Below, piece after piece: positions 27,001 through 33,000 of a stretch of DNA of 64,000 nt. The stretch's first letter is position 1, and each line of letters opens with the position of its first letter. Made by a program: the position numbers. Source of the DNA: Escherichia coli O157:H7. GTDB taxonomy: Bacteria > Pseudomonadota > Gammaproteobacteria > Enterobacterales > Enterobacteriaceae. The stretch is from the NCBI RefSeq assembly GCF_013167455.1, contig NZ_CP038328.1; one strand, 5' to 3'.

Positions 27001-30000
27001 ACCTGAAAGCGACCGTTGATCGCGTGCGCTATATGAGTTTCGACCATGTTTCTCCACCAGAAATGCTGTTACGCCAGCATCTTGATATATTCTCTGCCCT
27101 GCAAAAACGTGATGGCGATGCGGTAGAACGTGCAATGACGCAACATTTGCAGGAAATCAGCGAATCCGTGCGCCAGATCCGCCAGGAAAATAGCGACTGG
27201 TTTAGCGAAGAGTAATTCATTTCCTCTCATCCCATCCGGGGTGAGAGTCTTTTCCCCCGCCTTATGGCTCATGCATGCATCAAAAAAGATGTGAGCTTGA
27301 TCAAAAACAAAAAATATTTCACTCGACAGGAGTATTTATATTGCGCCCGTTACGTGGGCTTCGACTGTAAATCAGAAAGGAGAAAACACCTATGACGACC
27401 TACGATCGTAACCGTAACGCAATCACCACTGGCAGCCGTGTTATGGTTAGCGGCACCGGTCACACTGGCAAGATCCTGTCGATTGATACTGAAGGTCTGA
27501 CCGCTGAGCAAATCCGCCGCGGAAAAACCGTAGTTGTTGAAGGTTGTGAAGAGAAACTGGCACCACTGGACCTGATTCGTCTCGGCATGAACTAAGCGTG
27601 TGAATGCCGCCGATGGCGGCATTGCTTTTTTTACTTCACGGAATATTTCGCCACGGTCGCTTTCGCACCATGCGCTAATAAAGACAAGTACGCTTCCGTC
27701 ACTTTTGCAGTAAACAAGCTATTGTCTGGCAAATCACCACCAAAAATCGCCTTAATCGCCAGCAATGACTGGACGCGCGCTTTCCCTTCGGCACTACTTT
27801 GTACAGCCTTCTGAATAACAGGTAACAGTGGGTCACTGATTTCTATCGGATTTCCCTGTTCATCAACACCACCGACATAACGCATCCAACCCGCGACGCC
27901 CAGCGCCAGCAGATCGAACTTGCTGTCATGCGCCAGATGCCAGCGAACAGAATCCAACATCCGCTGTGGCAATTTCTGGCTGCCATCCATCGCAATCTGC
28001 CAGGTTCGATGACGTAACGCCGGGTTGCTATAGCGTGCAATTAATCGGTTAGCGTAATCTTGCAAATCAACGCCCTGCACTTTCAGCGTCGGCGCTTGTT
28101 CCTGCAACATCAAGGCATACGCCGCATGACGATAATGTTCATCTTCCATACAGTCATTAATGTGCTGATATCCGGCAAGATAACCCAGATACGCCAGGAA
28201 TGAATGACTGCCGTTGAGCATGCGCAACTTCATCTCTTCATAAGGCAGCACATCACTAACCAGTTCGGCTCCCGCTTTTTCCCATTCCGGACGTCCGGCA
28301 ACAAAGTTATCTTCGATTACCCACTGGCGGAAAGGTTCACAGGCAACGCCAGCAGGATCGCGCACACCGGTAAGCTGTTCGATTTTCGCCAGCGTATCCT
28401 CTGTCACTGCGGGCACAATACGGTCCACCATTGTTGATGGGAAAGTCACGTTATCTTCGATCCATTGTGCTAGTTTTACATCAACGGCTTGTGCGTAGGA
28501 AGTGACAACGTCACGCATAACATGACCGTTTTCTGGCATGTTGTCACATGACATGACGGTAAATGCGGGAAGTCCTGCCGCTTTACGGCGAGCCAGCGCC
28601 TCAACAATCACCCCTGTTGCTGTTTTCGGCTGGTGGGGATTTTGCACGTCGGCAGCGACCATCGGGTGATCGAGCATTAACTGTCCGGTCGCCGGAGAGT
28701 GGAAATACCCTTTTTCGGTGATTGTCAGAGAGACAATCGCGATTTGCGGTTCACACATCGCAGCCAACACGGTTTCTAAGCCATCTATCTGTACGTGCAA
28801 GGCTTTTTTAACGACGCCAACGACGCGAGCCGTCCACGCATCGGCCGACATTTCCGCAACGGTATAAAGATTATCTTGCTGATGTAAATCGGCAATTTGC
28901 TGTTCGCCGCCGATTAAGTTGACCTCATAATATCCCCAGTCACTGAAATGTTCTGTAGCAAGAATATCGGCATACACGCCCTGATGCGCACGGTGAAATG
29001 CACCAAAGCCTAAATGAACAATTCTTGGGGCCAGGTTATTACGATCATAAACAGGGAGTGTCGCTTTTGCTGATAACAAATTATTTCCCATAACAATTCC
29101 TTAAATTTAAATATGGCAAGCTACATGTTTTGTTATATGAATAAAAATCCCCTCTCCGGTAAGAGAAGGGATTGAGGATTTACAGACTTCTGGAAGGTTG
29201 CGCAGCTCTTACAACACGCGGTTGATCTTCCGCAGCGTCTTCCAGCGCACTTAAATCACGGTCTTTCACTTCTGGCATTTTCAGCGCAGAGATTAAACCA
29301 ATCACTGAATATGCCATGATCATAATGGCGATCGGATACCAGGATTCCGTCATGGTGCAGAAAATACCCGCCAGGATAGGACCAAAACCGGAAGCGATAA
29401 GACCACCAATTTCTTTAGAAATAGCCATCCGGGTAAAGCGGTTTTTACAGCCGAACATTTCTGCCATGGTAATGTTTTCCAGAGCAAATAATCCCAGCAC
29501 CGCACAGTTATGAATCACAATCAGTGCAACCATAATGGTGCTCGGGGCATAGCTTTTATCTACGATGATAGAAAGCATTGGCCATGCCAGCACAATCGCG
29601 GAGGTATTCATAATAATATACGGGATCCGGCGACCAATTTTATCGGATAACCAACCAAGGAACGGAATGGTCATAAAGCCGGGAATCGAACTGATCATCA
29701 ATGCATCTGTTGGAATTGCTTTGTTAAACAATAACGTCTGTACTAAATAGCCTGCAAGGAAAGTCTGAATTAACCCGGAGTTACCTGCCTGACCAAAACG
29801 CAGCCCTGTTGCCAGCCAGAAGGATTTGCTCTGGAATATGCTACCAGCAGGTGCAGGTTTTGCTGTCGGTTGGTTGCTGTCGTTAACCTTCTCAAAGACC
29901 GGGCTTTCTTTCAGATTCATACGCAACCAGATAGCAAAGACCATCACGACAACGCTCGCCAGGAACGGTATACGCCATCCCCACGCCAGCAGTTCCTCTT

Positions 30001-33000
30001 TACTGAGAATGAAGAACATAAAGGCCCAGATTGCCGTTGCGCTCAAGGTTCCGCAGTTAGTTCCCATAGCCACAAATGAGGAGATAATTCCGCGCTTACC
30101 TTTTGGCGCATATTCCGCCAGCATCGTACCGGCACCGGAAATTTCCGCACCTGCACCCAATCCCTGAATAATACGCAGCGTCACCAGCAAGATGGGGGCA
30201 AAAACACCAATCTGTGCATAGGTCGGTAACACTCCAATTAAGGTGGTACAGATCCCCATCATGGTGATGGTAATAAAGAGCACTTTTTTACGCCCTATTC
30301 TGTCGCCCATTTTGCCGAAAATAAATGCTCCGACAATACGCGCCACATAACCTGCACCGTAGGTTCCCATTGCCAGAATTAACGCCATTGCCGTTGATGA
30401 TTCAGGAAAAAATATTTCATGAAACACTAACGCTGCGCCGAGCGAATATAACTGGAAATCCATAATTCATAGATGTTTTTTACTATTCTGTGGGTTTTTG
30501 GGTGTTTTCTAAGTTTTTTCAGATGGTTGTATTTTTTCTAAAAATCCCTAATCTCGATTTTGCTGTTTATTTGAGGCCTTTTTATGTCCCATATATGCCC
30601 CACAGATACCCCGCAGCCAAAATCAACAAAATGCCAAAAGGTTCTGTTCCTGCCCTGCAACAAGAAATGCTGCGACGTGTCAGTAAACGTTATGACGATG
30701 TAGAAGTGATCATCAAATCCACCAGCAACGATGGCCTTTCAGTTACTCGCACCGCCGATAAAGATTCTGCAAAAACTTTTGTTCAGGAGACGCTGAAAGA
30801 TACCTGGGAGTCTGCTGACGAGTGGTTTGTTCGCTAATTAACGAGTAAAATCAGTAACGGCTGGAAATCATTCAATACTCGCACTATCGAAAGTTCACCA
30901 GCCAACCGCAGCACGTTCTTGCATACGAGGTGCCGCGTTTTACATGCTGTACCGAGAATTAATTTCATTTTACGAAAAGTTAACCCGCCATTGCTATCTT
31001 AATTTTTTAAAACGAAGTTACCTCTGTCAGAGTCAAAAGCACAATTATCTCTTCCTACAATCATTGAAACTGCGATTGATTCCCTGCTCAAAGGATGAGC
31101 CGCCCTTGTTTTAACAAGATATATTAATGCCATTTTATCATACAACATACAAACATTTGAATTCATTGAATTCCTCATAAATACCCCATCTTCTGGTTCA
31201 CATAATGTAACAGGGCATGTTCGTAAGCTCTCTGGCACTTGCAATTGTGCATGCTCCACATTAAATGCACATACTTCAATTTTATCTAACAACTCCTCTA
31301 ACTGGTAGTTAGAAAGCAATTCCATATTTTCGAGCATCTCAATTTCACGCAGTACTGTAACTTCACGGCTTGTCAAACTACCATGATTAAGTGTACGTTC
31401 AATATGTTCTATATATTGAAGGCCAATCTGGATGTTATCATTCGATAAACCATCCTGGTTAAGACTTCCCATAAAATATCCATTTACCTGCATAGGTCGT
31501 ATTGACACCATCAACTCACCCAGTCTTACTTGAGCTTCTCCACGAATAGTCTGATTACGTATCTCAGACAAGGTTTCTTGAGGAATGTCAGACAAAAAAC
31601 TAACCCCAGGTAAAATATAAGGCGTTAAATCTACAGGCATTCCTCTCCCTCCATTTTAATAATTTAATTTTGCTTTAGTAAAAAATAAAAATACACAAAA
31701 CTATATTTATAGCATTAATTATCACTTACAACAAAAAGCTTCTCTTTTTGCATCAAAGTGACATTCGTCTTTTCTCATAATCATTGATTCTGTTATAGGT
31801 TCTCGACTCAGAGGATGAGTTCCACCAGTTTCAACAAGTTGCACTAACGCATCCTTATCATATAGAGAGCATATCTCAGCACCTCGTGAGTTTCTCATGA
31901 ACACTCCAGTCTCAGGTGTGTCCAGCGTTATCGGGCATGTCAAAAATGACTCCGGGCAAGAAAAGTGATTAGAATCCGTTCCAAATACACAAGAATTTAT
32001 TTTTTCCATTAATATTTTATTACCTGTTTTATTTTCTCTGTGTTCTGCCATGACACTCTGAAAATAGTTATTAACACTACTTAAAAAATCGACACCTCCA
32101 TTTAATTGCCTTTCCAGAGCCACAGCCCTTCTATCCATTCGATGCTCACGCCCCAATAGCCTATCCAGTAAGCCTCCTCTCACCGGTTCAACTGAAAATC
32201 CATCCAGTAGTTGGACATAGTGAACAGAATATTGGCCACTACCAATGGATATTCTTATTCCACTTTCAAGTCTGGCTGCATCCTGCAAAGACTGTACTCT
32301 TGCAGGAGATAATTGAGATATACTTGGGATACTTAAGGTGGTAACAGGCATAAAAACCTCATTCAGTAATTCATATCAGTTTGCAGGATGTTTCATTAAA
32401 TAAAATAAATGGTAATGTTCATTTCAATTACCCTTTATAATGAAGTTTCCTCTGGTATCGTCATAAATGCATTCTTCATGTTTTACAATTATTGATGCCG
32501 TTATTGGTTCCCGGGTCAGTGGGTGGGGTAAGCCTTCACCAACCAAACGAGAAAATGCAGCGGCATCAAATAAAGTACATACATCTGAACCATCTGAATT
32601 CTTCACAAAAATACCTTTTTCAGGCTGCTCCAGTGTAATTGGACACTGAATAGCCTCAAGCGGGCACTGAAGTCTCTCTGGACAAACAGAAAACTTACAT
32701 TGAGATATTTTGTTCTGAATACTCTCTTGCGATTGTGCTTCACCTGAGTCCGAAAGCATACTTAGCATTCTCTCACCAAGGGCTCGAGGACCACTATTAA
32801 ATCCCAAAAGCAATAACTCAGAAAGCAATCCGCCATTACCGCCACTGGATGAAAAGCGCCCATTAGTAGAATCATACACAATACTGACAGTTTCACCACC
32901 GACTGTAATATCTCCGCGCCCATTGGCTACAATTCGGGCACGAACAACCTCCACCCCAAGATTAAATGAATGTGATCTAATATCTGAGGTTAATGGCATA

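Follow-up and report, generated by a model that had tools for sequence, protein, structure and literature searches.

A truncated transporter gene beside a lambdoid prophage

The 64,000-nucleotide stretch of Escherichia coli O157:H7 DNA analyzed here (the window; RefSeq assembly GCF_013167455.1, contig NZ_CP038328.1) carries a remnant of ydfJ, a gene for a transporter of the metabolite:H+ symporter (MHS) family of the major facilitator superfamily (MFS), directly beside a prophage. The remnant, 'ydfJ, occupies 29180..30463 on the minus strand and comprises the 3' 427 codons of the gene, opening at the native Met29 codon with the N-terminus MDFQLYSLG. As the preliminary description of this region had noted, and as both the open reading frame (ORF) list and the raw sequence show, an in-frame TGA (30467..30469 in plus-strand coordinates) lies two codons upstream; the minus strand reads CAT CTA TGA ATT ATG GAT TTC across the start, in the wider context ...AAAAAACAT CTA TGA ATT ATG GAT TTC CAG... 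GC content and GC skew both change at the junction. Prophage sequence begins directly past it, again as described beforehand; we find there a DinI-like gene, three nleG genes, then tail-fibre, lom and gpJ genes and further prophage genes up to the window end. The end coordinate of 30998 given in that description is without biological meaning and marks only where the first nleG gene begins. We assign a probability of about 0.93 to the reading that ydfJ was truncated by site-specific integration of a lambdoid prophage, with later deletion and inversion, and that the remnant is most likely non-functional.

The missing N-terminus of YdfJ

The uninterrupted ydfJ gene of E. coli WCHEC005784 (NZ_CP028578.2) encodes 455 residues with the N-terminus MTIEKHERSTKDLVKAAVSGWLGTALEF|MDFQLY. 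Alignment with this allele shows that exactly 28 residues are absent from the window ORF, which otherwise differs by only two amino-acid changes, M237I and L289P (numbered as in the full-length protein); at the nucleotide level the K-12 remnant is identical to the same allele. L289P corresponds to codon 261 of the window ORF, at a position where 11 of the 12 aligned full-length proteins have leucine. Orthologues from six other genera, among them Citrobacter, Enterobacter, Leclercia, Lelliottia and Superficieibacter, are 454-460 residues long and 82-85% identical at 97-100% query coverage. The N-terminus is kept by every aligned orthologue (DLVKAAVSGWLGTALEF), and within it the segment D12-L-V-x-A-A-x-S-G-W-L-G-T-A-L-E-F28 is almost invariant. 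The proposed N-terminal truncation is thus borne out by the intact allele and by these orthologues, and the circumstance that would have spoken against it, full-length orthologues naturally starting at MDFQLY, was examined and excluded.

Intact YdfJ aligns over residues 23-418 with positions 1-400 of the MHS family profile TIGR00883 (462.9 bits). The window ORF aligns over residues 1-390 with profile positions 7-400 and, at 452.1 bits, still scores above the curated cut-off of 443.45 bits. It has neither a complete N-terminus nor the full first transmembrane helix (TM1) with its E-(W/F)-x-D-F motif. The motif given in the preliminary description, (E/A)(W/F)(Y/F)DF, was close to correct; YdfJ has it as E-F-M-D-F (residues 27-31), with the M as the first residue of the ORF. 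The MFS motif A of the TM2-TM3 loop, GKMGDRIGRKK, occupies residues 50-60 in the window ORF, or 78-88 when numbered along the full-length protein, and matches the consensus G-x3-D-(R/K)-x-G-R-(R/K). Since only two hydrophobic stretches precede motif A in intact YdfJ, at about residues 13-47 and 52-77, the first of them is TM1, and the truncation takes the positively charged cytoplasmic N-terminus and roughly the first half of TM1. Hydrophobicity and the position of motif A in this way uphold the earlier suggestion that the start of TM1 is lost. When intact YdfJ is modelled with AlphaFold2 on an alignment of 12 sequences, the result is too poor to place the TM1 boundaries within the twelve-helix fold expected of the family (mean predicted local distance difference test score 39.4). 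A single-sequence search of the PDB with YdfJ gave no matches, and a PDB profile search returned no solved homologue aligning before residue 63, so that there is no template over TM1.

The attachment site within ydfJ

We compared attachment (att) sequences of four kinds: attB from WCHEC005784, attR from the window and from K-12, attL from K-12 (ynfP), and attP from the free phage mEp460 and from an internal junction of the O157:H7 strain G5295. The comparison places the crossover in codons 29-31 and so establishes that the att site lies within ydfJ, as had been proposed. Read in the sense of ydfJ, attB is GCGCT TGAATTTATGGATTTCCAG TTATATTCG (longer form ..GCGCTTGAATTTATGGATTTCCAGTTAT..) and attR of the window is ACATCTA TGAATTATGGATTTCCAG TTATATTCG (longer form, for the window and K-12, ..TGAATTATGGATTTCCAGTTAT..); the core and bacterial arm of attR in K-12 are identical to those of the window. 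The attL of K-12 reads GCGCT TGAATTTATGGATTTCAAG AGTCATGCG (longer form ..CTTGAATTTATGGATTTCAAGAGTCAT..). The attP of the free phage mEp460_ev081 reads ACACCTG TGAATTATGGATTTCAAG AGTCATACG, with a longer form, ..TGAATTATGGATTTCAAGAGTCAT.., that is shared with the int'-dinI junction of G5295, and the attP-like sequence at that junction of a truncated integrase gene with dinI is ACATCTA TGAATTATGGATTTCAAG AGTCATTCA. The flanks are exchanged reciprocally among these sites, in the classical B-O-B' / P-O-P' / B-O-P' / P-O-B' pattern.

The core shared across the four sites is TGAATT(T)ATGGATTTC(A/C)AG; the phage version has 18 bp and the host version 19 bp. Its perfect part is the 9-bp sequence ATGGATTTC, found at 30455..30463 (minus strand) in the window and common to attB, attP, attL and attR; extending beyond these 9 bp crosses one indel in a T-run and one C/A mismatch. 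The whole attR core of the window, TGAATTATGGATTTCCAG, spans 30452..30469 on the minus strand, and the ATG of 'ydfJ, which is the Met29 codon, sits inside it. The phage-derived TGAATT at 30464..30469 (minus strand) gives the in-frame TGA at 30467..30469; it has one T fewer than the host sequence, and this shifts the frame. The attL site retains the host TTT and attR retains the phage TT, which places the strand exchange within ATGGATTTC, to the right of the T-run.

Beyond the core, comparison with G5295, mEp460 and the K-12 prophage Qin identifies 30470..30594 as the non-coding phage arm (P arm) of attR. Window positions 30452..30852 match the internal attP junction of G5295 at 99.75%, with a single mismatch in 401 bp that coincides with the C/A position of the core (30454). 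The same arm in mEp460 and in Qin is related, with several substitutions, and the similarity of K-12 to the phage side of the junction reaches window position 30602.

The preliminary description held that the core could not be set without the other junction of this prophage; it was set here from other genomes. Its placing of Qin at this site proved right: the junction recurs in K-12, where Qin is annotated at 1632277..1652745 and ynfP carries attL. The study of Nakamura 2021 describes ydfJ-integrated phages in many strains, K-12 included, and defines an 18- or 19-bp att sequence for them (PLoS Pathog, PMC8112680). The lengths found here agree with that definition, an agreement resting on core length and on our own alignment.

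Integrase and free-phage relatives

The free phage mEp460 (LR597641.1) encodes a 427-residue tyrosine integrase with the domains PF12167 (Arm-DNA-binding) and PF00589 (Phage_integrase); 38 bp separate the end of the integrase gene from the core. The intQ remnant of K-12 is 96.7% identical to this protein, and the int' remnants of strains 2017C-4109 and G5295 are 98% identical. Like the ydfJ prophages, mEp460 and its relatives Tritos, HannyBb and PhiR42_1 combine an attP of the form ..TGAATTATGGATTTCAAG.. with a 427-residue tyrosine integrase gene just upstream, and the int remnants of the ydfJ locus share 97-98% identity with the mEp460-type integrase. Unlike the window, mEp460 has no match to the dinI or nleG region, the match ending at query position 737, at about the start of dinI; its arm sequence is of the K-12 Qin type, in contrast to the O157 type of the window.

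Frequency of the disrupted site

The attB site was surveyed in 5426 complete E. coli genomes with a 300-bp query. A match is present in 5373 of the 5426 and is contiguous in only 2009 (37%); a contiguous attB is missing from about 62% of the complete E. coli genomes. In the remaining genomes, as judged from sampled rows, the match stops at query positions 161-164 or begins at 146, which is the core, and the two parts typically lie in separate places; the O157:H7 genomes among the sampled rows have the 3' half of the query only. A megablast search with the window's junction against the same 5426 genomes gave several match classes, and about 264 genomes have this particular junction with dinI and nleG. 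Among protein database clusters, the 427-residue form heads one of 3723 sequences and the 455-residue form one of 2586.

The genes around 'ydfJ

Where the locus is intact, the genes rspA, rspB, ydfJ and ydfI share a strand and are separated by 11, 57 and 88 bp; in WCHEC005784, ydfJ is followed by rspB, rspA and ynfA on the same strand. In the window, the gene order past the downstream side of 'ydfJ is ydfI, then ydfZ and rspR. The first of these, at 27631..29091 (minus strand), encodes a mannitol-dehydrogenase-family oxidoreductase. The gene rspR (ydfH), at 26529..27215 on the plus strand according to the ORF list and the annotated intact locus, encodes the GntR-family repressor of rspAB. RspR represses the rspA promoter, and in K-12 Qin separates the regulator from its target (PMC8249747). 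Insertion of the prophage likewise separates ydfI from rspA-rspB. A strong terminator-like hairpin, in which 12 pairs precede a T-run, separates the stop codon of ydfJ from the start of ydfI (29146..29173, minus strand; from a consensus scan only), which suggests that ydfI is perhaps not simply co-transcribed with ydfJ. A literature search for a link between rspA-rspB-ydfJ-ydfI and L-gulonate or mannonate found nothing usable.

A chimeric prophage

The lambdoid prophage body runs on the minus strand from 30464 past the window end at 64000 and contains tail-fibre, lom, gpJ, tail (including tape-measure), head (including capsid), portal, terminase and lysis genes and part of the early region. 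The first phage gene past the junction, divergent from 'ydfJ at 30595..30837 (plus strand), is DinI-like (PF06183, 64 bits; RefSeq WP_001120551.1); against the NCBIfam model NF007893 it has an E-value of 1e-12 but only 48.3 bits, the curated cut-off being 111. It is followed by three tandem genes for U-box type III effectors of the NleG family (30999..31640, 31722..32351 and 32424..32999), of which the first scores 148 bits with PF06416 (T3SS_NleG). RefSeq names their products DUF1076 proteins. These three genes make up the prophage's cargo end and, like 'ydfJ, are on the minus strand.

The window is 100.0% identical to the O157:H7 strain G5295 over 24001-49000 and 99.9% over 39001-64000, window position x corresponding to record position 2840297 minus x. 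Strain 2017C-4109 is 100% identical over a 2.6-kb junction query, yet diverges past about 37.9 kb when the whole window is searched by BLAST. From 30400 to 37599 the closest relative is the 2017C-4109 prophage at the ydfJ site, which is essentially identical apart from a single patch in the tail fibre (33200-34000). From 37200 to 64000 the closest relative is instead the prophage of strain 2015C-3163 between uspF and ttcA, at the ttcA site, and it too is essentially identical. The parental type thus switches from the ydfJ-site to the ttcA-site type at about 37200-37600, within gpJ. From this point a tail-gene module extending from part of gpJ through the tape-measure gene (37200..43897, minus strand) is 99.70% identical over 6698 bp to the prophage on the uspF side of G5295, and this module is likely the substrate of exchange between the prophages.

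A few further features of the prophage body were recorded. The tail-fibre ORF (33384..34613, minus strand) encodes a long collagen-like Gly-X-Y repeat and a repeat region rich in alanine, serine and glutamate. In the late-regulatory region, the anti-GcvB sponge small RNA AgvB (59076..59137, plus strand; Rfam 96.5 bits) adjoins STnc100 (59138..59330, minus strand; 149.9 bits), both above their gathering scores. A weak and partial tRNA match follows at 59417..59476 on the minus strand (Rfam 37.3 bits, model positions 7-64 of 71), where RefSeq has a 71-nt tRNA-Met in G5295; an ARAGORN scan found no tRNA anywhere in the window. The match may represent a degenerate phage tRNA. In the early region, a sok antitoxin RNA (61767..61942, minus strand; 120 bits) adjoins a hokD-type toxin gene, the two forming a type I toxin-antitoxin module.

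The far end, a deletion and a probable inversion

The structure beyond the window was read from G5295 as a proxy. There the prophage runs about 11.8 kb past the window end to xisR-intR beside ttcA, the Rac attachment site, and its IntR integrase is only 43% identical to that of mEp460. An attL carrying the ydfJ 5' fragment is not present at this end. A search for the direct repeat at the other prophage end, as put forward in the preliminary description, would fail in this genome, the prophage being recombinant, with its far end at ttcA and the ydfJ 5' fragment deleted. The missing attL is explained by later recombination and deletion and not by a different origin of the junction at 'ydfJ.

Two sets of observations in G5295 bear on these later events. 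The first concerns the other flank of the original insertion. The gene ynfA lies 209 kb from 'ydfJ, beside an 87-bp fragment from the start of rspA and an IntQ-type integrase gene cut at residue 228, and this ynfA-side junction is 100% identical to that of 2017C-4109 over 2502 bp (L014 4287..5035; L003 47408..48156), so that the two strains have one and the same deletion. Because the int' fragment joins the rspA fragment there, the 5' 84 bp of ydfJ, rspB and most of rspA have been deleted, and with them attL and the C-terminal half of the integrase.

The second set concerns the reciprocal product. Next to uspF, G5295 has a prophage that is of the ttcA-site type as far as the tape-measure gene and of another type beyond it; it ends in a truncated integrase gene, an intact attP, a dinI gene and a further prophage that terminates at an integrase gene beside ompW. 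G5295 thus shows hallmarks of inversion: two hybrid prophages with mismatched att ends (ttcA-intR...attR-'ydfJ and uspF...int'-attP) and a long, near-identical inverted repeat at the point of exchange. Together with the intR-ttcA far end, they indicate a probable inter-prophage inversion, and exchange between the window-type and uspF-side prophages would imply that about 184 kb of the chromosome was inverted. Prophage-mediated inversions are well documented in O157:H7 (PMC8112680; PMC8991562, citing Iguchi 2006). An intact attP-type sequence, TGAATTATGGATTTCAAG, was seen between the truncated integrase gene and dinI in the prophage cluster (L010 2089..2103; about 3041089..3041103 of G5295). 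Such an internal attP is the signature of tandem integration at ydfJ.

Is the remnant functional?

As to the fate of the remnant, the evidence points most likely to a non-functional pseudogene. This judgement is drawn because no Shine-Dalgarno sequence or promoter was found, the operon context, start and half of TM1 are lost, L289P is present, and RefSeq, through the Prokaryotic Genome Annotation Pipeline (PGAP), marks 'ydfJ in identical genomes as a pseudogene, "incomplete; missing N-terminus". Some points weigh against the overall interpretation. The ORF is open and scores above the TIGR00883 cut-off (452 versus 443 bits), and the current K-12 annotation has the 427-residue product as a coding sequence. 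That the protein is inactive we infer from sequence features. The window stops inside the prophage, its far end being taken from the G5295 proxy, and the order and direction of the rearrangements we infer from the logic of the att sites rather than from a phylogeny.

The best-surviving alternative, which we nevertheless consider unlikely, is that 'ydfJ is still expressed from Met29 by read-through of same-strand nleG or late phage transcripts and retains some residual or new transport function. Its 427 codons are open with only two changes from the intact allele, the family cut-off is exceeded, the 427-residue form stays open in a cluster of 3723 database sequences, and K-12 annotation treats it as a coding sequence. 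Both the nleG and the tail genes are read in the direction of 'ydfJ, and our scan found no terminator-like site in between. However, the 20 bases before the Met29 ATG (AGTAAAAAACATCTATGAATT) contain no Shine-Dalgarno-like sequence, and a scan of 29000-31100 found no promoter-like site directly upstream, the sole minus-strand site (31030..31002) lying inside nleG. The charged N-terminus and the half of TM1 that are lost are conserved across genera, L289P alters a nearly invariant residue within a predicted helix, and the PGAP call is that of a pseudogene. Still less likely, in our estimation, is the stronger form of this idea, in which the truncated YdfJ that is open in thousands of E. coli genomes would be transcribed through nleG and late-gene read-through and would act as a membrane protein with residual or altered function; if true, a fragment of a host transporter would have become a phage-controlled gene.

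Two explanations that dispense with integration into ydfJ were rejected as highly improbable. That the 427-residue ORF is the natural full-length gene of this lineage, with a phage merely upstream, could appeal to an intact ORF and a genuine start-type codon (ATG at 30463), but that ATG is internal codon 29 within the att core, and the reading is excluded by the contiguous 455-residue gene of 2009 E. coli genomes, with codons 1-28 joined without a break, and by full-length orthologues of other genera (454-460 residues) with the same N-terminus. That the truncation arose by deletion or by rearrangement through insertion sequence (IS) elements, phage adjacency being secondary, would fit the genuine deletion seen at the opposite end of the locus and the IS elements present in the prophage cluster, but the four-way att comparison rejects it: the breakpoint coincides exactly with an 18-bp core that free-phage attP and the attL and attR of K-12 have too, and recurs in thousands of genomes with different prophages.

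A proposed course of events

With truncation by site-specific integration as the preferred reading, the following sequence would account for the present structure. A lambdoid phage with a tyrosine integrase of the IntQ/mEp460 type entered attB in codons 26-32 of ydfJ by Campbell-type integration, and one or more phages in ydfJ may have built up a tandem cluster. Strand exchange in the shared ATGGATTTC produced an attR composed of the phage arm, TGAATT, ATGGATTTC and the rest of ydfJ. The phage brings no substitute 5' end. The gene, which lies downstream of rspA-rspB, lost its promoter, ribosome-binding site, start codon and first 28 residues, and what remains is the open run of 427 codons from the internal Met29, preceded by the TGA that the phage contributed, in frame and two codons away.

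The next event was probably a deletion where the integrase end of the cluster lay. It took attL and the C-terminal half of the integrase and, on the host side, rspB, the 5' fragment of ydfJ and most of rspA. Inversions involving oppositely oriented prophages at ttcA and ompW probably came after this deletion; among them, homologous recombination in the approximately 6.7-kb, 99.7%-identical tail module with the oppositely oriented ttcA-site prophage would have inverted about 184 kb. The outcome would be a chimeric prophage beside 'ydfJ, ending in G5295 at xisR-intR-ttcA, and a permanent disruption of ydfJ.

Relation to known systems

The integration site in ydfJ is already known and common, with Qin in K-12 and the PPydfJ prophages of Shiga toxin-producing E. 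coli (STEC) as examples. Qin (Kim; b1543 and ynfP/b4534) has the same insertion point and core as the window and the same 427-codon remnant, as well as a related phage arm up to 30602 and the same orientation, with its tail end beside 'ydfJ. Unlike the window prophage, it is a decayed remnant of 20.5 kb that still has attL, the ydfJ 5' fragment (ynfP), rspB and rspA; the window prophage is a chimera of about 45 kb that includes dinI and a trio of nleG genes, in a genome that has lost the 5' fragment and rspAB.

At ydfJ, O157:H7 is reported to carry lambda-like prophages encoding nleG variants, two to four of them in a cluster (PMC8112680). The PPydfJ clusters of STEC O157:H7 and O26:H11 resemble the window in ydfJ integration, multiple nleG variants and an 18/19-bp att sequence, and also in recombining with prophages of other sites to give chromosome inversions. 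The inversions described there involve ompW and ydfJ prophages; G5295 shows an additional exchange with the ttcA (Rac-site) prophage. Iguchi 2006 (Gene 372:199, as cited in PMC8991562) attributes O157:H7 inversions to recombination of similar, oppositely oriented lambdoid prophages, and the inversion proposed here, through a 6698-bp repeat of 99.7% identity, does not differ in principle. The exact core, the population frequency, the lost partner junction and the chimeric prophage are the points added by our analysis, each an instance of published phenomena.

Tyrosine-integrase attachment sites inside coding genes need not inactivate the host gene. Phage 21 and e14 integrate in icd and carry a substitute gene end, and the host gene stays functional. 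The ydfJ phages share with them an attB inside a coding gene. Unlike phage 21 and e14, they supply TGAATT and a non-coding arm only, and for this reason ydfJ is truncated.

The practical value of these observations lies in annotation and genome comparison. A search for direct repeats as prophage boundaries misleads at the ydfJ locus, and the chimeric prophage is not expected to excise precisely because its att ends come from two different integrase systems. The disruption of ydfJ cannot revert, since the genome no longer has the 5' fragment, attL or the cognate integrase. With rspAB deleted, rspR is a regulator without its target in this O157:H7 lineage, where 'ydfJ, ydfI and rspR are the stranded leftovers of an rspR / rspA-rspB-ydfJ-ydfI cluster.

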